From: a virus
Lineage: Duplodnaviria; Heunggongvirae; Uroviricota; Caudoviricetes
Strand: one strand, 5' to 3'
Length of the DNA stretch: 21,808 bases
IMG/VR virus record: IMGVR_UViG_2740892234_000019
Below, in pieces: positions 1,603 to 21,380 of this stretch. How positions within the stretch are numbered: the first letter of the stretch is position 1; every line of letters starts with the position of its first letter. A model generated the notes under the pieces. That model was not told the origin of the DNA. It worked only from the letters and a program-made list of their open reading frames with translations, and searched no databases. The translations under genes were made by a program, and so were the position numbers.

Positions 1603-1735
1603 TACTGACATTTTGCATAGGCAGAACGCAATTATGCATATTGCGGTATAATCCCCTTCTTAAAACTGTAAGAATTGCTTGCTAATCCTTGCAGTTTTTG
1701 ATTATAACATTCTTATTTGTTTATTAGGATTTTTG

Positions 1736-3868
1736 ATGGAACTGTTACAGGAACACGGGGCGATACTTAAAGTTGTAATCATGCCTACTACTGGGGAACA
1801 AACCATAATCCAAGGTTTCGATACTGGCCTCCTCAACCCAGAGATATCCAACATTCTTTTTTTATTGGCCAAAACACCAAAAGAAATTAGTGAGATTTTT
1901 GTCAATGAAAATGATAACTTTCAGCCTACTCTAAGCGGGCTAAATCCTATTTTTTTAATATCTAAAGAAAATCTTGAAAAAATACCAAATATTTATCAAA
2001 CGCCATTTTGCTTAATTTTTTGTGCTAAAGAAGATTTTTCGTATGTTTGTGCTTTAAAAAAACATTTTGCTATACCACCTATAATTTGTTGCAATTCTAA
2101 ACGCGCTGATCTACCACTTAATAAGATTAATAGTATATACTCATTTGATAAGGTGCTCTTCTCTCGGTTGAAATTCATTGAGGATAAAATAAGAAAAAAT
2201 CACAGTGAAAAGAAAATATCAACGAAGTTGAAGCGAAGAGGGGCTTTATTTAATAAATCACCTTGGAGATCGACGCTTAACAATTCAACACTACCCAATG
2301 AGTTGTTAATTGAATCACTTGGCTATATGCTATCTCCACCAAAAAGAATTAAAGATGGTAGTAGCAAAAGAGAGTTTATAGAAATAATACTTCATAGCGT
2401 TGATGCATACACCGAATGTTTAAAGGAATTAGATATACCACTTCCAACGGAAGTCTTACTTTTTGCTCCGGGTATGCACTCTTTTTTATATGATAAAAAT
2501 AATGACTTTTATGAGTTAATAACGGAAAATTTATCCACAATTGAGAAAAAATTCCTTATTGATGGAGTGTTGAGGAATCCAGGCTATTCTGGAATTAGAC
2601 TTGATATAAATTCAGATAGAAAAGAACTTTTTAAAAGTCCTGCTTTCCGTTACCTCACCTCACTAAGACGCGCTGAAATGCGATTAACAACAGCTGCGAT
2701 TACTTTATTTAGCATAAATAAAAAAATCCCAGCAATAAGATTGCCAAATGCAATAAATCATTACTCCAATTATTTGAAAAATCTTGAAGATCTTGCAACT
2801 TCTTCTGGGATAAATAGTGAAGCATTCATCACTAAATCTAAAGCATTCAATACTGTTATTCGAAGAGCCCTTGGTTGCAAGTTGAGAACATATATAAGTA
2901 AAAACTATAGCGATTTGTCCTTTGTTTGTGATGTACCATTGGATTGGATTAGGTTTAATAACATACCTATAATGTTCAGTCATGAGATATCAAGAATAAA
3001 TGCTACGCCTGGTAACGTTCTTCTACAGAGCGCCTCTGCTTTTCCGCGCGTTTTAGTAAAAGCATCTGAGTTGAGAAAGGTTTTAGTTATACGTTCTTTT
3101 GAGCCTGATGATCACTTAAAGTTCATATTAGAGAACGCAATTGAGATATTTAAAAAACAGATGCCAGATCTTGATTGCGAGATTATTGATGTTAGATCGA
3201 AAGCTGAGTTTATTGATGCTCTAAATCAATATCAAGGTCATATTCTTGTTATGGATTGTCATGGAAACCATGATGGCAATGGGAGTCATGGATGGTTAAT
3301 AATAGGTGAGGATAAAGTGGACACTTGGAGTTTGAGAAAAATAGCAAGAATTCCTCCTATCGTAATTCTGAGTGCATGTTTAACATCTGCCCTAAGTGGT
3401 TCTCATGCCTCTGTTGCTAATGGCTTCGTTATAAGTGGTGCATTAAGTGTCATCGGAACATTACTGCCTGTAAATGCGATAGACTCTGCTGTTTTTGTAA
3501 GTCGGTTGATCTACCGGTTTTACGAGTTTCCTTCGACGCTATCTACAAATTTTACACATGTTAATGTAAGGCTTTTTCTTTCTGTTTTTCTTAGGATGTC
3601 CTATGCAAGCGATTTAATAAGAGGATTTTTATCTGAAGATTTGATACCGAATAATTCATGGAAGAAAGATGCAGTTGATATTAACATGTATATAAACATG
3701 CTTCACCATGATTGGTATGATTATGTAATTAACAAATTGACGATGTTAACGGGGCTCACGAAAAAAGATGTACTTGATTTTATCGATAGAAAATTATTCA
3801 TAACTGAAACTATGTGCTATAGCCAAATTGGATTTCCAGATGCAATCACAATTAGTCTTAAAGATTGA
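1736..3868 (+). CDS. Large AT-rich protein with C-terminal caspase-like (CHAT / peptidase C14 clan) domain; candidate stand-alone defence or abortive-infection effector
   Basis: 710-aa ORF from ATG 1736 (AGGA RBS 7 nt upstream; the track ORF starts at an upstream TTG 1679). Composition is visibly AT-rich compared with flanking phage genes. Caspase-fold dyad signature: GHILVMDCHGNHD, then about 38 aa later PPIVILSACLTSA. No Walker A motif; the N-terminal ~470 aa have no motif I can name. Confidence 0.7.
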   Translation: MELLQEHGAILKVVIMPTTGEQTIIQGFDTGLLNPEISNILFLLAKTPKEISEIFVNENDNFQPTLSGLNPIFLISKENLEKIPNIYQTPFCLIFCAKEDFSYVCALKKHFAIPPIICCNSKRADLPLNKINSIYSFDKVLFSRLKFIEDKIRKNHSEKKISTKLKRRGALFNKSPWRSTLNNSTLPNELLIESLGYMLSPPKRIKDGSSKREFIEIILHSVDAYTECLKELDIPLPTEVLLFAPGMHSFLYDKNNDFYELITENLSTIEKKFLIDGVLRNPGYSGIRLDINSDRKELFKSPAFRYLTSLRRAEMRLTTAAITLFSINKKIPAIRLPNAINHYSNYLKNLEDLATSSGINSEAFITKSKAFNTVIRRALGCKLRTYISKNYSDLSFVCDVPLDWIRFNNIPIMFSHEISRINATPGNVLLQSASAFPRVLVKASELRKVLVIRSFEPDDHLKFILENAIEIFKKQMPDLDCEIIDVRSKAEFIDALNQYQGHILVMDCHGNHDGNGSHGWLIIGEDKVDTWSLRKIARIPPIVILSACLTSALSGSHASVANGFVISGALSVIGTLLPVNAIDSAVFVSRLIYRFYEFPSTLSTNFTHVNVRLFLSVFLRMSYASDLIRGFLSEDLIPNNSWKKDAVDINMYINMLHHDWYDYVINKLTMLTGLTKKDVLDFIDRKLFITETMCYSQIGFPDAITISLKD

Positions 3869-3975: not shown

Positions 3976-4170
3976 TTACTCAATAACTCCCGCAAATTTG
4001 TAAATCTTGCGTGATGCCCATTTATTTGGGCATGATTTAATATCAGGATCTGGAAAGTCTGGCCTGTATTTCTGGCCAGTTCTCCTGTTTACGCTGTTCC
4101 AGCGAAGAACTGTCGATACTGAAACTCCACAGAAGTTGGCGACTTGTTTAGTTGTCATTAAGTTGTTCAT
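3976..4170 (-). CDS. Excisionase-like small HTH DNA-binding protein (Xis/AlpA-like)
   Basis: 64-aa ORF whose start overlaps the upstream stop (translational coupling). Motifs STVLRW ... DFPDPD ... KIYKF resemble the excisionase-type winged helix. Lies at the int-proximal end of the leftward operon. Confidence 0.55.
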   Translation of the reverse strand: MNNLMTTKQVANFCGVSVSTVLRWNSVNRRTGQKYRPDFPDPDIKSCPNKWASRKIYKFAGVIE

Positions 4171-5152: not shown

Positions 5153-5679
5153 TTGCGTAACTCCGATAACTCGTTAAAACGTTCCATAAACATCCCGTAG
5201 GCATGGCCCGGAGCCAGTGGAATAACTTTGAACATCTCTGTTGCCGGGATACCTTCCAGTACTGGCCAGAAAGAGCCATCATCAAGCCCGAGATCGCGGC
5301 GTTCAGTTGCCAGCATGATGAGATCGGCATATTTCACAGGCGTGCTCATAACCGGGGGTAACCCGTATTTCTCACGGATTACGGCGTCTATTTTTTCTTC
5401 CATCCGTTTATAGTCAGGAAGAAGGCGTTTCAGTGGTGCGGGAATGTCCTGGCAATACGCTTCTGTTGCATCATGCATTAACGCTTCAAAAGCAAATTCC
5501 TGCGGTACCAGCTGGCTGCAAAGCACCGCATGTTGGGCGACGCTGTAGAAGTGTGAAAGATGTCCTGCAAAGCGACAGATATTTGAAAGGGAAACCGCGA
5601 TATCGTTAATCACGATGTCGTCTTTATTTATCTTGTCATAATAAAAATGCTTCCCAGAAAAAGTTTTAATAAATGACAT
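5143..5679 (-). CDS. yfdR: HD-domain phosphohydrolase (5'-deoxynucleotidase YfdR-like)
   Basis: 178 aa from ATG 5679 (MSFIKTF...), with GGAGAA RBS 5 nt upstream. HD-domain His and His-Asp motifs (VAQHAVL, ALMHDATEAY). Length and neighbourhood match my recollection of the CPS-53 yfdPQRS block; the symbol is from memory, not a search. Confidence 0.65.
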   Translation of the reverse strand: MSFIKTFSGKHFYYDKINKDDIVINDIAVSLSNICRFAGHLSHFYSVAQHAVLCSQLVPQEFAFEALMHDATEAYCQDIPAPLKRLLPDYKRMEEKIDAVIREKYGLPPVMSTPVKYADLIMLATERRDLGLDDGSFWPVLEGIPATEMFKVIPLAPGHAYGMFMERFNELSELRKCA

Positions 5680-5812: not shown

Positions 5813-5822
5813 NNNNNNNNNN
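5813..5822. other. Assembly gap (N x10)
   Basis: Run of N. Right flank 5823-6123 is a ~95% identical copy of 5506-5812. Confidence 0.95.
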
Positions 5823-6123: not shown

Positions 6124-7144
6124 TCAGGCGGTGAAAGTACCAATAAAGGTTTCTACTTTGCTGTCTTTGAATTTCTCAACAAGCAGATCACGAAATTCGT
6201 TAGCCATTTCTTCCTGCACCGCTTCCAGCTGAATAATGCGCAGAACCAGTACAGGACGATCGCCAGTGATAATGCTGAGGCGTAATTTAAACGGACGTTC
6301 TTTCAGACCTTCAAACGGAACGCATTTAAATTCAAATGCCACTGGCATAATGTCTTTGGTCTTCGCTTCGACAGATTCCATCAGGGAGCGTTTGCCGCTG
6401 AAGTCATTATCTTCAAAATCAGCGGTCTGGTTTGCTTCAATCGTGATTTTACGGATTGCCGCAGCCGCTTTTGTTGCCTGAATGGCGCCACCATTAGCAT
6501 CAAAGCCCACAAGGTAGTCGGCCCAGTCTTCAATCCATTCTGCCAGNNNNNNNNNNTTTCGCTTCGACAGACTCCATCAGAGAGCGTTTGCCGCTGAAGT
6601 CATTATCTTCAAAATCAGCGGTCTGGTTCGCTTCAATCGTGATTTTACGGACCGCCGCAGCCGCTTTTGTTGCCTGAATGGTGTCACCATTAGTATCAAA
6701 GCCCACAAGGTAGTCGGCCCAGTCTTCAATCCATTCTGCCAGTGATTTCTGGGAGTTACGCTCGCCGTTAACAGACAACAGGGCAGAGAACGGTGCTGTC
6801 TTTTTCAGTTTGAGAGTGGCGGTGTTATCTGCGTGACCTGGTTCATCAATAGTACCCAGGTTAAGCACACTGACGGCACGCATATTATCAGCATCGATAA
6901 AGCAGCGGGTGCCTTCATCTGCAAGATCTTTAGAATAACGGGTAAAGTCATCGATGCTGGCAGTGGAAAGCGCACCACGGAAACGGAAGCGATTTAAATT
7001 AAATTTTTCCAGATCATGAATGCGGAAATTCTCAGGCAATGCCACAGCATCGGCACCAATCTTACTGATAATTTCATTAACACCCTGAGCAGAAATAAGG
7101 GCATGGATTTGATTAATTGCGGTTGCGTCTAAGTTCTGAGACAT
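6124..7144 (-). CDS. Phage protein, yfdQ-like; interrupted by gap and diverged duplicate
   Basis: Track ORFs 6530-7144 and 6124-6510 are the N- and C-terminal parts of one protein. 6557-6742 duplicates 6361-6546 with mismatches. Removing the overlap gives about 274 aa. Family not recognised beyond position. Confidence 0.55.
6547..6556. other. Assembly gap (N x10)
   Basis: Run of N flanked by a ~186-bp diverged duplicate. Confidence 0.95.
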
Positions 7145-8029: not shown

Positions 8030-8683
8030 TCAAAAATCCATTATTACTTGTTTGACAAGACCAACTATTCTGCAGTTCTCACCGCATTCAATAGTTTTAT
8101 AGTTAGGATTTAGTGGGACGAGATACCTGTTCGGCCAGTCCTCAACAAATTTTTTGAGTGTCGCTTCTTGCCCACCATTGATATGGGCAACAACGATTTT
8201 TCCGTTAATACACTCTGTATCAATAATATCTGGCTCTACGATAACGATAGAACCTTCTGGTATCGATGGTGAGCCGAGGGGATTGGTCATTGAATCACCA
8301 CGGACCCGTAGTGCAAATGCCATTTCTGATACAAGGGCGGTAGTATAAACCCACTCTTCAGCATCTTCTTTCCTGACACCAGGCTCCGTCATTGTCCATG
8401 AACCCGCCTGAACCCACGAGATGAGGGGGACTTTTTTAACTGCGAATATTTCAGGTTTTAGATTTATCTTTGGTTCAGGCGAGCCTTTTCCGCTAACAAG
8501 CCACAGAGGATCGCATTTAAGTGCGTTGGCTAGGGCTTGAAGGTTGGCTCCATTTGGTTGGTAGTCGTCCTTTTCCCATCCAGTAACCGTGACACGGTTC
8601 ACACCAGTCAAATCAGCCAGTGCTTGTTGTGTCAGGTTCAGTTCTTTTCGCCTTTGGCGAATACGATCACTCATGTTCATCAT
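8030..8683 (-). CDS. CI-type prophage repressor (N-terminal HTH, C-terminal S24 LexA-like peptidase domain)
   Basis: 217 aa. HTH region LTQQALADLTGVNRVTVTGWE; Ala-Gly candidate autocleavage site (VQAGSW); S24 catalytic Ser in VRGDSMTNP and a downstream Lys (LKKF). Divergent from the cro-like gene. Start may be ATG 8683, 8680 or 8674. Confidence 0.85.
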   Translation of the reverse strand: MMNMSDRIRQRRKELNLTQQALADLTGVNRVTVTGWEKDDYQPNGANLQALANALKCDPLWLVSGKGSPEPKINLKPEIFAVKKVPLISWVQAGSWTMTEPGVRKEDAEEWVYTTALVSEMAFALRVRGDSMTNPLGSPSIPEGSIVIVEPDIIDTECINGKIVVAHINGGQEATLKKFVEDWPNRYLVPLNPNYKTIECGENCRIVGLVKQVIMDF

Positions 8684-9003: not shown

Positions 9004-9588
9004 GTGGGTAAAGAACCTGAATGGAAAGTTGATAAACAACCAGCATGGCTGGTGGCAGCAATACGAAGAACGATTGCTGATTTACCTCATGGCTATGAGG
9101 AAGCAGCAGAAATTCTTGGTTTGTATAAATCTGATGATATCACCCCAGCAAAAGATCAATTGCATAACAGACTGCGTAGCGGTGGGGATCAAATTTTTCC
9201 ACTTGAGTGGGCCATGGTTTTACAGGATGCCAGTGGTACCAGGCATGTAACAGATGCAATAGCCCGTCGTAGTAATGGGGTGTTTGTGCCGCTGGTGGTC
9301 ATTGATGACATTGACAATGGTGACATTAATCAGCGGCTGATGGAGTCAATAGAATGGATTGGCAAGCATTCCCAGTACTTACGCAAGGCAACTGCTGATG
9401 GAGTTATTGACCAGGCTGAGCGTGAGCAAATCGAAGAGAACAGCTACCAAGTAATGGCGAAGTGGCAGGAGCATTTAACACTGTTATTTCGTGTTTTTTG
9501 TGCACCGGAAAAGAGTAACGCCCGCGAGTGTGCAGCTCCGGGCGTCGTGGCGTCGATTGCTTCTGGTTGTGGAGAAACTAACGCATGA
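9004..9588 (+). CDS. Phage regulatory protein, possibly CII-like (YdaT/CP76-like)
   Basis: 194-aa ORF with GTG start and GAGGAA RBS 5 nt upstream; sits in the cII position after cro. Family assignment is tentative. Confidence 0.45.
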
Positions 9589-9923: not shown

Positions 9924-9976
9924 AGGTCGGTCATGAGCCTGTTAATGACATCCCAGCCCATTGTGATAAATCGTGA
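9764..9976 (+). CDS. Hypothetical small protein
   Basis: TTG start preceded by AGGAGA 7 nt upstream; charged, W-containing, protein-like sequence. Confidence 0.35.
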
Positions 9977-10925
9977 TCTTGCATGCCGTATTGGTCTGAA
10001 TGAGGCAATTGTGTTGCAGCAGCTTCATTACTGGCTGAATGAAACGAATTCAGGCACTGAGCATGGCGGAATTCGCTGGGTTTATAACACGACAGAACAG
10101 TGGCTGGAGCAGTTTCCGTTCTGGTCAGAGTCCACTCTGAAACGCACATTTGCAAGCCTGAAATCACTTGGGGTTTTGCGTCGCGAGCAACTCAATAAAT
10201 CGAAGCGTGACATGACCAACTTCTACACGATCAACTATGAAAGTGAGCTTTTAGAAGAGGTCAAAGTGAACGAATCCATCAGGTCAAAATGCACTTCTCC
10301 ATCGGGTCAAAGTGACCTGATGGATGGGCGCAAAATGACACGATCCATTGGTTCAAAACGACACGCTGTCATCGGGTCAAAATGGCCCAATGATCTTACA
10401 GAGAATACAACAGAGATTACTACAGAGAATAAAACCTCTTCTCGTCCGGACGCTTCGCAACCGGACACGCAAACGGCTGAACAGGAGTTTTTAACTCGCC
10501 ATCCTGATGCGGTTGTATTCAGCCCTAAAAAGCGCCAGTGGGGAACGCAGGATGATTTGACCTGCGCACAGTGGCTCTGGAAAAAAATCATCGCCCTGTA
10601 CGAGCAGGCCGCCGAATGTGACGGCGAGGTGGTTCGTCCCAAAGAACCGAACTGGACAGCATGGGCAAACGAAATTCGCCTGATGTGTGTGCAGGATGGT
10701 CGTACTCACAAACAAATCTGCGAGATGTACAGCCGCGTCAGCCGCGATCCGTTCTGGTGCCGTAACGTGCTCAGCCCGTCGAAGTTGCGGGAAAAATGGG
10801 ATGAGCTTTCCCTGCGCTTATCGCCGTCCGTCAGCACGCACACAGAAAAACGTGAAGACCCGTACTTCAAAGCCAGTTACGACAACGTGGACTACAGCCA
10901 GATCCCGGCAGGATTCAGGGGGTGA
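9933..10925 (+). CDS. Phage replication initiation protein, O-like (replisome organizer)
   Basis: 330-aa ORF in the O position with AGAGG RBS. Contains an internal iteron array followed by an AT-rich stretch, the classic lambdoid ori-inside-O arrangement. Confidence 0.65.
   Translation: MSLLMTSQPIVINRDLACRIGLNEAIVLQQLHYWLNETNSGTEHGGIRWVYNTTEQWLEQFPFWSESTLKRTFASLKSLGVLRREQLNKSKRDMTNFYTINYESELLEEVKVNESIRSKCTSPSGQSDLMDGRKMTRSIGSKRHAVIGSKWPNDLTENTTEITTENKTSSRPDASQPDTQTAEQEFLTRHPDAVVFSPKKRQWGTQDDLTCAQWLWKKIIALYEQAAECDGEVVRPKEPNWTAWANEIRLMCVQDGRTHKQICEMYSRVSRDPFWCRNVLSPSKLREKWDELSLRLSPSVSTHTEKREDPYFKASYDNVDYSQIPAGFRG
10257..10386. repeat. Origin-of-replication iterons (five copies of about CATCRGGTCAAARTG)
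   Basis: Direct repeats at about 10257, 10277, 10299, 10347 and 10369, followed by an A-rich segment 10390-10435. Confidence 0.6.
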
Positions 10926-10927
10926 TC

Positions 10928-11020
10928 ATGAGTCTGTTAAATGACGTTCAGAAATTCATTGAAGCCCATCCGGGCTGTACTTCCGGAGACATTGCGGATG
11001 CTTTTTACGTGGGGGCTTAA
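10928..11020 (+). CDS. Small hypothetical protein (30 aa), translationally coupled
   Basis: ATG 10928 with AGGGGG RBS; its stop overlaps the Dam ATG (TAATG). Not in the track because it is shorter than 60 aa. Confidence 0.3.
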   Translation: MSLLNDVQKFIEAHPGCTSGDIADAFYVGA

Positions 11021-11631
11021 TGAGTAATAAATATTGCCAGGCGCTGGTAGAACTGCGGAACAAACCAGCCCATGAACTGAAGGAAGTGGGCGATCAGTGG
11101 CGCACGCCGGACAACATTTTCTGGGGAATTAACACCCTGTTTGGCCCGTTTGTTCTGGATCTGTTCACCGACGGTGATAACGCCAAATGTGCCGCGTATT
11201 ACACGGCGGAAGACAATGCGCTGGCGCATGACTGGTCAGAACGTCTTGCGGAGCTTAAAGGTGCTGCCTTTGGTAATCCCCCATACAGCCGCGCCAGTCA
11301 GCATGAGGGGCAATACATCACCGGCATGCGTTACATCATGAAACATGCCAGTGCCATGCGTGATAAGGGCGGGCGCTATGTTTTCCTGATCAAAGCTGCC
11401 ACCAGCGAAGTGTGGTGGCCGGAAGATGCAGATCATATTGCTTTTATTCGCGGGCGTATTGGTTTTGAAGTGCCTGCCTGGTTTATCCCGAAAGACGAGA
11501 AGCAGGTGCCGACAGGCGCTTTCTTCGCTGGTGCTATTGCTGTTTTCGATAAGACCTGGAAGGGACCGGCAATCAGCTACATCGGGCGCGATGAACTTGA
11601 GGCATGTGGTGAGGCGTTTCTGGCGCAGGTT
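11020..11631 (+). CDS. Phage DNA N6-adenine methyltransferase (Dam family, PF05869-like); 3' end lost in gap
   Basis: Motifs DQWRTPDNIF, LDLFTDGDNAKCAAYYT and catalytic NPPY (AFGNPPYSRA). The ORF runs into the N gap at 11632. Confidence 0.75.
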
Positions 11632-11641
11632 NNNNNNNNNN
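11632..11641. other. Assembly gap (N x10)
   Basis: Run of N. Confidence 0.95.
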
Positions 11642-11921
11642 GGAACTGCGGAATAAACCAGCCCATGAACTGAAGGAAGTGGGAGATCAGTGGCGCACGC
11701 CGGATAACATTTTCTGGGGAATTAACACCCTGTTTGGTCCGTTTGTTCTGGATCTGTTCACTGACGGTGATAACGCCAAATGTGCCGCGTATTACACGGC
11801 GGAAGACAACGCGCTGGCGCATGACTGGTCAGAACGCCTTGCGGAGCTTAAAGGTGCTGCCTTTGGTAATCCTCCATACAGCCGCGCCAGTCAGCATGAG
11901 GGGCAATACATCACCGGCATG
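11642..11921 (+). other. 280-bp island between two gaps: a ~97% identical copy of the Dam 5' region (11050-11329)
   Basis: Aligns by eye to the intact Dam gene with scattered substitutions; probably a small contig from a paralogous prophage. Confidence 0.5.
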
Positions 11922-11931
11922 NNNNNNNNNN
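11922..11931. other. Assembly gap (N x10)
   Basis: Run of N. Confidence 0.95.
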
Positions 11932-11958
11932 GGAAAAACTGGTCAGGGAGATGGCGGC

Positions 11959-12285
11959 ATGACGACATTAACTCAATGCCAGCAGCAGGTGCTGGATATG
12001 CTGATTTCTTATCAGAAAGAGCGTGGCTTTCCGCCAACCAATCAGGAGGTGGCAACCATGCTGGGATACCGTTCAGTGAATGCAGCGGTAGAGCATCTTC
12101 GCGCACTGGAGAAAAAAGGCGTCATCACGATAAAGCGTGGCGTGGCCCGGGGGATAACGCTTCATACCGCGGTGAAGGACGACGACAGCGAGGCGGTCGG
12201 GATTATCCACTCACTGCTTGCCGGTGAGGAAAACGCAAGGCTGCGTGCAACCCACTGGTTACATGAGAGGGGCCTGAAAGTATGA
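11959..12285 (+). CDS. LexA N-terminal DNA-binding-domain homologue lacking the peptidase domain
   Basis: 108 aa from ATG 11959 (GGGAGA RBS 8 nt upstream). Matches the LexA winged-helix pattern: LT.CQQQVLD ... G.PPT ... LGYRS.NAA.EHL.AL.KKGVI.I..G..RGI.L. No S24 Ser/Lys domain follows. Stop overlaps the rusA start. Confidence 0.65.
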   Translation: MTTLTQCQQQVLDMLISYQKERGFPPTNQEVATMLGYRSVNAAVEHLRALEKKGVITIKRGVARGITLHTAVKDDDSEAVGIIHSLLAGEENARLRATHWLHERGLKV

Positions 12286-12677
12286 AGCTGATCCTGCCTT
12301 TTCCGCCCAGCGTGAACACGTACTGGCGACACCCCAACAAAGGGGCGTTTGCTGGTAAGAGCCTGATAAGCGCGGCGGGGCGCAAATTCCAGAGCGCGGC
12401 GTGTGCAGCAATAGTTGAGCAGTTACGTCGTCTGCCAAAACCAACGTCGGCACCTGCATCAGTGGAGATCGTGTTGTTTCCTCCGGATAACCGGATCCGC
12501 GATCTGGACAACTATAACAAGGCGCTGTTTGACGCCCTGACCCACGCGGGTGTGTGGGAAGACGACAGTCAGGTGAAAAGAATGCTGGTGGAGTGGGGAC
12601 CGGTTATCCCGGAAGGGAAGGTCGAGATCACTATCAGTAAGTACGAAAAAGCGAGTTGCAAATTAGCAACTCGGTAA
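12282..12677 (+). CDS. rusA: Holliday junction resolvase RusA
   Basis: 131 aa with the RusA family pattern (PSVNTYWRH ... RIRDLDNYNKALFDALT ... EDDSQV). Confidence 0.85.
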   Translation: MKLILPFPPSVNTYWRHPNKGAFAGKSLISAAGRKFQSAACAAIVEQLRRLPKPTSAPASVEIVLFPPDNRIRDLDNYNKALFDALTHAGVWEDDSQVKRMLVEWGPVIPEGKVEITISKYEKASCKLATR

Positions 12678-12828
12678 CGGAATTGAGCAACACCCTAAAT
12701 TTGGGTATTACCTCGTTAAAGATACTGTATTTATGAACAGTGTATCCTTGATAACTATTAAAAATCGCAGTAAGTTCATCTTGCATCAACGAAAAGGGAG
12801 TGCAGTCCCGAAATTTGTGGAGAAACCA

Positions 12829-13644
12829 ATGAATCAGTTGCTTGTAATTGATGGCGTTTCTGTGCGCCAGTACTTTGAATCTAACTACTGTCTTAACGAC
12901 CTTCAGAAAGCTGCTCTTCTTGCCGCTGGTGAGAATCGCTCCTCCCGTTCGCTGGAAGTTCACGAGTTTATGCGTCGTCCTGAAACGAAGGCTCTTGTGG
13001 AATTACTGGAAGAAGAAACTACGGGAGATTCCCGTAGTATTCCTGTCATCACCATTCAGGGGCGCAATGGTGGGACGTATGTCTGTAAAGAGCTGGTCTA
13101 TGCATATGCAATGTGGATCAGCCCGGCATTCAGCTTAAAAGTGATACGTACTTTTGATGCGCTTCATAATTCATCACCAGAAGAAACCACATCCGACAAA
13201 ATTAAATCCGGGGTCATTCTGCTTGAATCAGCAGCAAAGACTCTAAATCTGTCAAACTCCTCGAAACTTGGTGCATACCAGAAATTATCAAAGGTAGCAG
13301 GTCTTCCTGAACTTATGCCGAGCTATGCCATTGATGCACCTGCTGATGCGCCAGATGGTTCAAGCCGCCCGACACTGTCACTGAGTGCACTGCTGAAACA
13401 GTATGGTATACGCCTGACGGCTAATCAGGCATATCACCAGATGGTGAAACTGGGGATCGTCGAGCAGCGCGAACGATACAGCCGTACCGCGATTAACAAC
13501 ATCAAAAAATTCTGGTCGCTGACAGCGAAAGGTTGCATGTTCGGCAAGAACATCACCAGTCCTGCAAATCCGCGCGAGACGCAGCCGCATTTCTTCGAAT
13601 CCCGATTCCCTGAGCTGTTAAAGCTGCTCGATACCGTTCACTGA
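12829..13644 (+). CDS. KilA-N domain protein (antirepressor-like)
   Basis: ATG 12829 with GGAGAA RBS. N-terminal segment ...GTYVCKELVYAYAMWISPAFSLKVIRTF resembles the KilA-N/APSES fold. AT-rich leader. Confidence 0.55.
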   Translation: MNQLLVIDGVSVRQYFESNYCLNDLQKAALLAAGENRSSRSLEVHEFMRRPETKALVELLEEETTGDSRSIPVITIQGRNGGTYVCKELVYAYAMWISPAFSLKVIRTFDALHNSSPEETTSDKIKSGVILLESAAKTLNLSNSSKLGAYQKLSKVAGLPELMPSYAIDAPADAPDGSSRPTLSLSALLKQYGIRLTANQAYHQMVKLGIVEQRERYSRTAINNIKKFWSLTAKGCMFGKNITSPANPRETQPHFFESRFPELLKLLDTVH

Positions 13645-14184: not shown

Positions 14185-15174
14185 TTGAGAGCACTGCTGA
14201 CCCCTGAAATTGCCCCGCGTATGGGGATCGTCTTGTTCAGACCAGGTTCAGAGCTGATGCCCCTGTTTATGCAGGGGCGTGTCCTGCTGGAGCCTGAGCC
14301 GGAACGTTATTCATCTTTTGCCAGTGGTGCCGTTCCGGCAGCATCACAACCGCTGGCGGATGATCCTGCCGTTCGGGCCGTGTTCCGCCATGAGGCGGTG
14401 ATCCGTCGTGCTGGTGGCGTGGAATGTCTTGAAAGCTGGTTACTTCGTGAAAAAGGCTGCCAGTGGCCTCATTCCGACTGGCACAGCGAGAACATGACCA
14501 CAATGCGACACGCTCCGGGCGCAATCCGTCTGTGCTGGCACTGCGATAACCAGCTGCGCGATCAGTTCACGGAACGGCTGGAAGCAATGGCAACGGATAA
14601 CTGTGCCCGCTGGGTGTTGTCTGTTGTGCGTCGGGATCTCGGTTTTGATGATAGTCACGTTGTGACAATGCCGGAACTGTGCTGGTGGCTGATTCGTAAT
14701 GACCTGGCGTATGCCTTACCGGAAAGTGCAGCCCGTAAGGCACTGAGATTACCGAAGCNNNNNNNNNNGTCTGTCACCCGGGAAAGTGACCTTGTGCCTT
14801 CGGTTACTGCCACCAGCATCATCCAGGATAAGGCGAAAAAGGTGCTGGCGCTGAAAGTGGATCCGGAGTCGCCGGAGTCTTTTATGTTACGCCCCAAACG
14901 TCGTCGCTGGGTTAATGAAAAGTACACGCGCTGGGTTAAGACACAGCCTTGCGCGTGTTGTGGTAAGCCAGCCGACGATCCACATCACCTGATTGGCCAT
15001 GGTCAGGGTGGAATGGGTACAAAAGCGCATGACCTTTTTGTGTTGCCTTTGTGCAGAAAACACCATGACGAACTGCATGCGGATACCGTGGCATTTGAAG
15101 AGAAGTATGGTTCCCAACTGGAGCTGATATTTCGTTTTATCGATCGCGCGCTGGCGATTGGTGTGCTGTCCTGA
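14185..15174 (+). CDS. DUF968-like protein with C-terminal HNH/zinc-finger-like motif; contains an assembly gap
   Basis: C-terminal CACCGKPADDPHHLIGHG ... LCRKHHDELH. The frame across the gap at 14759-14768 is not trustworthy; TTG start is uncertain. Confidence 0.5.
   Translation: MRALLTPEIAPRMGIVLFRPGSELMPLFMQGRVLLEPEPERYSSFASGAVPAASQPLADDPAVRAVFRHEAVIRRAGGVECLESWLLREKGCQWPHSDWHSENMTTMRHAPGAIRLCWHCDNQLRDQFTERLEAMATDNCARWVLSVVRRDLGFDDSHVVTMPELCWWLIRNDLAYALPESAARKALRLPKXXXXSVTRESDLVPSVTATSIIQDKAKKVLALKVDPESPESFMLRPKRRRWVNEKYTRWVKTQPCACCGKPADDPHHLIGHGQGGMGTKAHDLFVLPLCRKHHDELHADTVAFEEKYGSQLELIFRFIDRALAIGVLS
14759..14768. other. Assembly gap (N x10)
   Basis: Run of N; no flanking duplicate noticed. 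Confidence 0.95.
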
Positions 15175-15191
15175 TTTTGTGGAGAAAGTTG

Positions 15192-15572
15192 ATGCGTGAT
15201 ATTCAGATGGTTCTTGAACGCTGGGGGGCATGGGCGGCAAGTGGTAACACCGGGGTGGACTATTCTCCGATCGCTGCCGGATTCAAAGGACTTTTACCAT
15301 CTGCCACTAAACCACGTCCGGCCTGCTGCGATGATGACGGACTTATCATTGAAAACTGTCTTGCTCGTCTGAAGCAGAAAAAACCTGAGGAGTATTCGCT
15401 TCTCATTGCTCATTATTTGTTGCGAATATCAAAAAGACAGATAGCCAGGACGAGAAAGAAAAGCGAAAAAGCAATACGAATTGAGATGCAGATAGCCGAA
15501 GGGTTTATTGACGGATGTTTGTCTGTGCTGGGGGTAAGACTGGAGATGGACGACTGGCTGCTAAAAAAGTAA
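15192..15572 (+). CDS. Late-gene antitermination protein Q
   Basis: 126 aa from ATG 15192 (GGAGAA RBS). N-terminus MRDIQMVLERWGAWAA... and CCDDDG motif as recalled for E. coli prophage Q (QuuD-like) antiterminators. Confidence 0.8.
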   Translation: MRDIQMVLERWGAWAASGNTGVDYSPIAAGFKGLLPSATKPRPACCDDDGLIIENCLARLKQKKPEEYSLLIAHYLLRISKRQIARTRKKSEKAIRIEMQIAEGFIDGCLSVLGVRLEMDDWLLKK

Positions 15573-15787: not shown

Positions 15788-16285
15788 ATGCTGAAACAGC
15801 AGGATATGACAGAAACCGCCAGAGTGGTGTTTAATGAATTANNNNNNNNNNTCAGTTAATACTGACCCAACTATCAGCGGGGTGAACTGGAAAAGCCACA
15901 TCACCAACTGGTCAGCACATACAGTGAGCTGAACCGGCAGTATACGGAACTGCTGAGTGAATATAAAAATTTGCGGCGGTATTTCGGTGTGACGGTGCAG
16001 GTGCCGTACACCGATGTGTGGACGTATAAACCGGTGCAGTACTATCCAGGGAAACATCCGTGCGAAAAACCGGCAGAAATGCTGCGGCAGATAATCTGCG
16101 CGAGCAGTCGTCCGGGTGACCTGGTGGCGGATTTTTTCATGGGTTCTGGCTCAACCATAAAAGCAGCTATGGCGCTCGGGCGTCGTGCAACTGGTGTTGA
16201 ACTGGAGGCAGAACGTTTTGCGCAGACCGTTAAGGAGATTAGTCACATCCTTACATGCTCAATTGATGACGGGAAGGATGGATAA
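15788..16285 (+). CDS. DNA methyltransferase (beta-class N6A/N4C, PF01555-like); interior lost in gap
   Basis: C-terminal part carries HPCEKP and FFMGSGST (motif I FxGxG) and ends at 16285. An 18-codon N-terminal piece (15788-15841) precedes the gap at 15842-15851. The true gene must be longer than drawn. Confidence 0.55.
15842..15851. other. Assembly gap (N x10)
   Basis: Run of N. Confidence 0.95.
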
Positions 16286-20372: not shown

Positions 20373-20992
20373 ATGAGCAGGAAATTCCGCTATGGTTTAT
20401 CAGCGGTAGTTCTGGCGCTGATTGCCGCAGGTGCTTCTGCGCCTGAAATCCTCGACCAGTTTCTGGATGAAAAGGAAGGCAACCACACCACGGCATACCG
20501 TGATGGTGTGGGTATCTGGACCATCTGCCGTGGAGCCACCCGGGTGGATGGTAAGCCTGTTATTCCTGGCATGAAGCTGTCGAAGGGGAAATGCGACCAG
20601 GTTAACGCCATTGAGCGTGATAAGGCGCTGGCATGGNNNNNNNNNNGATTCCTGGCATGAAGCTGTCGAAGGAAAAATGCGACCGGGTTAACGCTATCGA
20701 ACGGGATAAGGCGCTGGCATGGGTGGCGAAGAACATCAGAGTGCCACTGACTGAACCCCAGAAAGCGGGTATTGCGTCATTCTGTCCTTACAACATTGGC
20801 CCAGGTAAGTGTTTCCCGTCGACGTTTTATAAACGAATTAATGCAGGAGATCGAAAAGGTGCCTGCGAAGCGATTCGCTGGTGGATTAAGGACGGTGGCA
20901 GAGACTGCCGTATTCGCTCAAATAACTGTTATGGTCAGGTCTCACGGCGTGACCAGGAGAGCGCGCTGGCGTGCTGGGGAATTGACAGATAA
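20373..20992 (+). CDS. SAR endolysin (T4-lysozyme-like, phage 21 R-type); interrupted by gap and diverged duplicate
   Basis: N-terminal signal-anchor-release segment GLSAVVLALIAAGASA; catalytic E-D-T region DEKEGNHTTAYRDGVGIWTICRGAT. 20647-20716 repeats the ~75 bp before the gap with mismatches, so the frame shifts across the junction. Confidence 0.8.
20637..20646. other. Assembly gap (N x10)
   Basis: Run of N flanked by a diverged duplicate. Confidence 0.95.
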
Positions 20993-21370: not shown

Positions 21371-21380
21371 NNNNNNNNNN
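21371..21380. other. Assembly gap (N x10)
   Basis: Run of N. Confidence 0.95.

Follow-up and report, generated by a model that had tools for sequence, protein, structure and literature searches.

A LexA-type DNA-binding domain with a helical tail, encoded in the nin region of Escherichia coli prophages, as a candidate RecA-insensitive repressor of SOS boxes

Between dam and rusA of a lambdoid Escherichia coli prophage lies a gene of 108 codons whose product resembles the DNA-binding part of LexA and ends without any self-cleavage domain. The question raised by this locus is whether such a protein would occupy SOS boxes while being insensitive to RecA, or whether the phage uses the captured domain in some other way. 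The window analysed here, by which we mean the whole stretch of 21,808 nucleotides, holds an SfV/e14-like prophage in which the gene can be examined together with its neighbours, and we compared it with relatives in phage records, viral contigs and complete bacterial genomes.

The lexA-like gene is a known, common and already annotated E. coli prophage gene, and its presentation as a discovery in an earlier, sequence-only reading of the window does not hold. The product matches PHROG 362 ("transcriptional repressor") with residues 1 to 108 on profile positions 1 to 106 of 106 (E = 4.5e-59), clusters of 93 to 98% identity carry the NCBI name "LexA family transcriptional regulator", and tblastn finds proteins that are 94 to 99% identical in about 50 phage records, where the labels are "LexA DNA binding domain protein", "LexA family transcriptional regulator" or "LexA-like protein". 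Phages with the gene include SfV (orf42), SfII, SfIV, mEp460, cdtI, Stx2a, Stx2c and Stx2k, and by megablast it is present in 2,233 of 5,426 complete E. coli genomes (about 41%), some of which hold as many as four copies. More distant members, at 40 to 66% identity, are found in Citrobacter, Klebsiella, Edwardsiella and Proteus phages. A genomics paper on Stx phages has the gene merely as a pham with pfam01726 (PMC8136144), and the searchable literature, which leaves most subscription journals outside, holds no functional study and no binding or expression data for any family member. Truncated phage LexA homologues also have a characterised precedent in the protein gp6. What is new here is the conservation of the DNA-contacting residues, a conserved helical tail, strong purifying selection, a presence/absence polymorphism of the gene as a cassette, and evidence that the gene does not depend on an SOS box carried by the phage as a constant partner, and our contribution is a re-description of an annotated gene together with a testable hypothesis.

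Boundaries and genomic setting of the gene

The prophage opens with an integrase gene (385-1602) and a BovA/Borvo defence gene (1679-3868, + strand), and a leftward early operon lies between the latter and the CI gene (8030-8683, minus strand; HTH_3 and Peptidase_S24). A CII-like gene (9004-9588) and a replication gene (9933-10925) are followed by dam, encoding an N6-adenine methyltransferase (11020-11631, + strand; PF05869, E = 8e-46), the 3' end of which is broken by scaffold gaps. Dam is the upstream gene in the operon of the lexA-like gene (11959-12285, + strand), and rusA (12282-12677, + strand; PF05866, E = 6e-15) comes next. Further along are the KilA-N gene of 271 codons (12829-13644, + strand; PF04383, E = 1.3e-15; PHROG 129), for which the ATG at 12829 is the start annotated in PV340568, a DUF968/HNH gene (14185-15174) and Q (15177-15572). 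The lexA-like gene thus sits in the nin region, with the replication genes on one side and Q on the other. The series dam, lexA-like gene, rusA, KilA-N, DUF968 and Q is the nin-region setting of the short phage form of PHROG 362, and a nin-region site beside rusA and/or DUF968, upstream of Q, is shared by phiSTEC1575, PhiR49_1, mEp390, a Klebsiella phage and EPP-1. An Rfam scan of the whole window gave no matches.

At the other end of the prophage, the protein encoded next to the integrase is a 729-aa CHAT-domain protein that matches PADLOC BovA (E = 2e-241) and, over its full length, PHROG 34827. By this BovA/Borvo match, the prophage bears a predicted anti-phage defence gene at its attachment-site end.

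The lexA-like ORF runs on the + strand from the ATG at 11959 to the TGA at 12283-12285 and is preceded by a Shine-Dalgarno sequence, AGGGAGA (11945-11951), with GGAG eight bases 5' of the start codon. Its start overlaps the dam stop in an ATGA (11959-11962), its stop overlaps the rusA start in another (12282-12285), and the complete phage records OQ243220 and PV340568 have a 327-nt CDS with the same 4-nt overlap with dam and with rusA. A consensus scan found no terminator on the + strand between dam, the lexA-like gene and rusA. The ATGA overlaps indicate translational coupling to both neighbours; the coupling to rusA had already been proposed from the window itself, and the complete phages agree with it.

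Position 11932, at which the feature had originally been taken to begin, is merely the first base past a 10-N gap (11922-11931), and 11932-11958 belong to the 3' end of dam. The window contains eight such 10-N scaffold gaps (5813-5822, 6547-6556, 11632-11641, 11922-11931, 14759-14768, 15842-15851, 20637-20646 and 21371-21380). The stretch 11632-11931 is a scaffold artefact in which two of them enclose a misplaced, paralogous dam fragment of 280 nt: 11642-11921 is identical to dam 11050-11328 at 271 of 279 positions (97%) and probably comes from a second prophage of the same genome. Comparison with phage PhiR49_1 (L002) shows that dam has really lost no more than some 11 nt at its 3' end. The gap immediately upstream, in which the sequence-only reading had allowed for the rest of a longer, unrelated protein, is therefore an artefact of the scaffold. 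That the ORF might be the C-terminal part of such a protein is ruled out by complete phages and chromosomes, in which the 327-nt CDS starts at the dam ATGA overlap. The gene is intact, as had been supposed in spite of the gap, and at least 10 E. coli chromosomes hold copies that are 100% identical to it in DNA.

The DNA-binding domain and its predicted specificity

The central structural claim of the earlier reading, a LexA DNA-binding domain without the autocleavage domain, was confirmed by the HMM search that had been proposed as its check. Residues 1 to 65 of the protein match PF01726 (LexA_DNA_bind) over the entire model (positions 1 to 65 of 65; E = 3e-19; 69 bits against a cutoff of 23.7). 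With phmmer against the PDB, the N-terminal domain of E. coli LexA, 1lea, is matched at E = 7e-16, and the numbering of the two proteins is shared through residue 69. The AF2 model (mean pLDDT of 85) folds, as expected, into three helices and a wing of two strands, and by Foldseek it superposes on the LexA-DNA complex 3jso with an rmsd of 1.0 Å over 68 columns at 50% identity. The winged helix-turn-helix takes up codons 1 to 69 (11959-12165, + strand), with helices at 6-22, 28-35 and 40-52 and strands at 56-58 and 66-68, and over this domain the identity to E. coli LexA is 45 to 51%. The likeness to LexA is confined to these 69 residues. An alignment along the whole length had been seen by eye; it stands for residues 1 to 69 and fails for residues 70 to 108, which form a separate two-helix tail.

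Pfam gives no match to an S24 peptidase domain in the protein, which stops at residue 108, where rusA begins at once, whereas the CI protein of the same window does match PF00717. The TIGR00498 lexA equivalog model is hit with 71 bits, below its cutoff of 110.95, and only at model positions 1 to 91 of 203. Measured against LexA proper as this model defines it, the protein has the winged helix-turn-helix and lacks the S24 domain with its Ser119/Lys156 dyad, a conserved counterpart of the Ala84-Gly85 cleavage site and a score above the curated cutoff.

A library of representatives at 50% identity includes proteins of 140 to 350 aa, among them P0129, P0132, P0148, P0151, P0152, P0155 and P0156, to which our query aligns twice, at different places. 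Such proteins may contain two LexA DNA-binding domains in tandem, which would make them single-chain pseudo-dimers.

The recognition helix reads SVNAAVEHLR, compared with SPNAAEEHLK in E. coli LexA. In the latter, S39, N41, A42 and E45 mediate the direct read-out of CTGT, and mutations at these residues alter specificity (PMC11442139). All four are identical, and at the same positions, in the lexA-like protein; within the family S39 and N41 never vary, and most members retain A42 and E45, in homologues down to 40% identity. H46 and the wing residues R64-G65-I66 are also identical to those of LexA. Three substitutions near the DNA surface, P40V, E44V and R28N, could make the affinity or specificity differ from that of LexA.

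The sole characterised phage-borne truncated LexA homologue is gp6 of the Bacillus phage GIL01, which activates the late promoter P3, is 44% identical to the host LexA and binds GaCACA-nn-TGTGaC and not the host LexA box (PMC6182141). It has 66 aa and a recognition helix, SHKTAHRYL, in which K38 is essential. BLASTP of the lexA-like protein against gp6 gave no alignment at E<=100, so that the two, which are linked only by their common Pfam domain, are independent captures of a LexA domain; neither homology to gp6 nor a diverged helix with a distinct operator was found for the protein studied here.

Gp6 nevertheless provides the main rival to SOS-box binding, namely that the captured domain has drifted to a private, non-SOS operator from which it activates or represses a phage promoter. 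Besides the precedent itself, this explanation can point to a comparable divergence from the host LexA and to the lack of a nearby SOS box in most relatives. The box upstream of the KilA-N gene that is described below could, depending on which of the weak promoters there is the real one, even sit upstream of a -35 element in the manner of an activator site. On the other hand, the four CTGT-reading residues are all kept, while the helix of gp6 is rewritten, the two proteins do not align, and late transcription in lambdoid phages is the task of Q. When we searched for an alternative operator with CTGT and ACAG at spacings of 4 to 12, we found only inherited sites, apparently within coding sequence, and no alternative conserved palindrome. 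Because the CTGT contacts are preserved here, whereas the similarly diverged gp6 has a rewritten helix, it is more likely that SOS-box specificity has been retained than lost. We consider drift to a private operator, which would make the protein an ordinary phage regulator, to be unlikely.

SOS boxes near the gene and in related phages

A scan of the prophage for CTGT-N8-ACAG, which the sequence-only reading had called for, yielded one perfect box in the window (box B, TACTGTATTTATGAACAGTG, 12723-12742). It lies upstream of the KilA-N gene, 46 nt past the rusA stop and 87 nt ahead of the KilA-N start codon, and is 440 nt downstream of the lexA-like ORF. On a rough matrix, built from known E. 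coli operators, box B has a heterology index of 5.3; all other sites in the window score 10.9 or higher, and the operators used for training score 0.3 to 9.8. In the intergenic region between rusA and KilA-N no promoter site satisfied strict criteria, and several weak candidates can be picked out by eye. The KilA-N gene is a candidate for control by LexA, and its product may be antirepressor-like.

An identical box B occurs in 98 viral contigs, and among relatives the distance from the box to the KilA-N start is either 106 or 117 nt, a variation of 11 nt. Where there is enough flanking sequence, the lexA-like gene is found just upstream of the box in 61 of 66 contigs. These contigs are about 99% identical in DNA, and the co-occurrence of box and gene is therefore a matter of linkage and not independent evidence. 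In other subfamilies boxes are mostly missing, and co-occurrence gives no clear evidence of function. A strong SOS box is absent within about 10 kb at about 35 of 80 E. coli subfamily loci, and at about 70 of 80 mEp390-type loci there is none within 6 kb, which means that a phage-borne SOS box is not an obligate partner of the lexA-like gene.

The reverse situation is also found. In four viral contigs (L087, L092, L128 and L144) dam runs straight into rusA through an ATGA (junction ...GGCATGAAGCTA...); exactly the lexA-like ORF is missing, and further downstream both the SOS box and KilA-N are still in place. Since all four join dam to rusA at the same ATGA, the ORF acts as a precise presence/absence cassette, and the lexA-like gene is accessory.

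Strong SOS boxes occur at other places in related phages. One, TACTGTTTTTACATACAGTA, is inside the cI coding sequence and another, TACTGTAAAAATAAACAGTG, covers codons 4 to 10 of a gene for a 350-aa DNA methylase; they are found, for example, at 5546-5565 and 15000-15019 of L004, respectively, and recur in many of the loci L003 to L082. In the Klebsiella phage ST846-OXA48phi9.1 (L182), the SOS box TACTGTTTTTTTGTACAGTA (3994-4013) stands 16 nt ahead of two leftward genes that form a unit downstream of Q. One product of this unit is weakly similar to KwaB of the Kiwa defence system, just under the Pfam cutoff, and dinI and a 91-aa lexA-like gene are nearby.

A different arrangement is seen in the Edwardsiella phage EPP-1 (L183), where the SOS box AACTGTATGTAAATCCAGTA (8231-8250) fills the spacer of a CTGAAA-17-TACAAT promoter. 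The operon behind this promoter begins with a Rha-domain gene, continues with a lexA-like gene whose 71-aa product has no tail, and includes a DUF968 gene, and the box recurs in four of nine related contigs (L185-L188). SOS control seems, in this independent lineage, to extend to the LexA-like gene itself, and the arrangement counts in favour of a tie between such proteins and SOS boxes.

Taken by itself, box B invites a narrower version of our main idea, in which the protein is a dedicated local repressor that shuts off the KilA-N gene after cleavage of the host LexA, so that KilA-N would be expressed as a pulse. No other strong SOS box exists in the 21.8-kb window, box B lies a short distance downstream of the gene, most of the box B contigs with sufficient flank have the gene just upstream, and the lexA-like gene of EPP-1 is part of an SOS-box operon led by a Rha-type regulator gene. 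The association of box and gene is, however, one of linkage among nearly identical contigs; the four contigs that have lost the gene still have box B and KilA-N, and phiSTEC1575-Stx2k, mEp390 and most other relatives have the gene but no box nearby. We regard a purely local role as distinctly improbable.

The tail, selection and a possible role

Codons 75 to 102 (12181-12264, + strand) encode the tail, with two predicted amphipathic helices at residues 75-88 and 93-102. In the AF2 model, the linker at residues 71-75 is disordered and the tail helices have a pLDDT of about 90, and the Foldseek/AF2 comparison found no counterpart of the tail in LexA structures. Its pattern is kept in homologues of 44 to 51% identity, with the consensus EAVxxIRALLAGEExARxRAxxWLxxRG, in which conservation reaches at least 90% at L86 and L87 and is complete at A97 and L101. 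The EPP-1 and gp6 proteins have no tail whatever. We infer that the tail is a family-specific dimerisation module.

The tail also raises the idea that the protein acts through protein contacts, for example as a mimic of the LexA cleavage site that would serve as a decoy or trans-substrate for LexA or for the RecA* machinery. The HMMER alignment, which extends to residue 90, does set A88-G89 opposite A84-G85 of LexA (LLAGE compared with VAAGE). This Ala-Gly pair is nonetheless lost in diverged members of the family (40 to 50% identity), which have ER, TR, SG, DD, CS or EE in its place, and because the pair is not conserved, the resemblance of LLAGE to VAAGE is a coincidence. The segment is moreover predicted to be helical, unlike the strand-loop of LexA, and the strongest constraint falls on the DNA-binding domain. 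In view of the lack of conservation and the predicted helix we rejected the trans-cleavable or decoy idea, and action through protein contacts is largely excluded and very improbable.

Selection was estimated from 159 copies in the fetched loci, all of 327 nt, which comprise 62 DNA alleles and 22 proteins. The pooled dN/dS over the 62 alleles is 0.096, with 0.031 for the winged helix-turn-helix and 0.23 for the tail. Purifying selection on the gene is strong, most of all on the DNA-binding part. Although some database copies (P0024, P0062 and P0068) are frameshifted or truncated and the gene is dispensable in some phages, the view that it is a decaying, functionless fragment of a full-length LexA or CI-type gene is effectively refuted by this low dN/dS, by a length of 108 aa in 159 of 159 recovered copies, by its presence in 2,233 genomes, by a tail that is still recognisable in homologues of 44 to 51% identity and by precise translational coupling at both ends of the ORF.

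The proposal that we tentatively put first, and to which we give slightly less than an even chance, is that the lexA-like protein is a RecA-insensitive repressor of SOS boxes that is produced with the delayed-early genes. The coupling of the gene to dam and rusA in the nin region would place its synthesis in the delayed-early phase, once repression by CI has been lifted. The protein would bind CTGT-N8-ACAG boxes as a dimer, formed probably through the tail or else on the DNA. As the CTGT-reading residues are kept and the S24 self-cleavage domain is missing, it could be an uncleavable substitute for LexA, and in an induced or infected cell, where the LexA of the host is being broken down, it would bring LexA-controlled promoters back under repression. 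It might act on the host SOS regulon, on genes that LexA controls in other prophages of the same cell and, in the present phage, on the KilA-N gene. Targets on the host or on other prophages are more likely than targets on the phage itself because in most of the diverged relatives the phage carries no SOS box near the gene.

RecA-insensitive occupancy of SOS boxes, first suggested by the sequence-only reading, is partly supported, being consistent with the kept CTGT contacts, the absence of S24 and the presence of a box near KilA-N. It is limited by the gene-less variants that keep both box and KilA-N, by the box-poor mEp390-type loci and by the precedent of gp6, which is an activator with a different operator. 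In its broadest form, the claim would be that about 41% of complete E. coli genomes carry an uncleavable LexA surrogate by which induced lambdoid prophages re-silence the SOS regulon in spite of active RecA*, and this we find possible but doubtful.

If uncleavable occupancy of SOS boxes is real, a prophage gene would modulate SOS-dependent mutagenesis, filamentation and the expression of toxins and colicins, as well as the induction of neighbouring prophages, Stx phages included. The effect would arise under stress by antibiotics or DNA damage, in near half of complete E. coli genomes. By silencing host SOS functions together with the LexA-controlled antirepressors of rival prophages, the induced phage would gain priority. 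The gene would then constitute a widespread and so far unstudied, phage-imposed and RecA-independent brake on the SOS response of E. coli, and a natural counterpart of the non-cleavable LexA alleles that have been engineered.

Among known systems, E. coli LexA (1lea, 1jhh and 3jso) is the closest in structure, with the same N-terminal winged helix-turn-helix fold and shared numbering through residue 69. The phage protein differs from it in having the two-helix tail in place of the S24 Ser/Lys peptidase and dimerisation domain, and its gene is phage-borne, is co-translated with dam and rusA and has no SOS box upstream. A natural precedent for repression by a protein that consists of the N-terminal domain only is the LexA fragment of residues 1 to 84. 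The free fragment shows residual or weak operator binding, so that SOS induction is complete only once ClpXP has degraded it, and it is short-lived because cleavage exposes a signal for ClpX (PMC11442139). Since this fragment still binds operators until ClpXP removes it, a stable protein of this kind is a plausible repressor. Neher et al. are said to have identified in 2003 the new C-terminal ...VAA of the fragment as the ClpX signal; the phage protein, by comparison, ends in ...GLKV and has the added helical tail.

With gp6, the lexA-like protein shares its origin in a phage and the possession of a LexA DNA-binding domain but no cleavage domain, and gp6 is expressed as an early gene; it is, however, a tail-less protein with a rewritten helix, whereas the protein described here keeps the contact residues of the host type. 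The host-type SOS box ahead of a phage gene, here KilA-N, resembles the LexA-controlled antirepressor modules of 186 (Tum), N15 (AntC) and Gifsy (GfoA/GfhA) (cited in PMC8044961). In those modules control is by the host LexA alone and the immunity repressors are uncleavable, whereas the phage studied here combines a CI protein that has an S24 domain with a LexA-like protein of its own.
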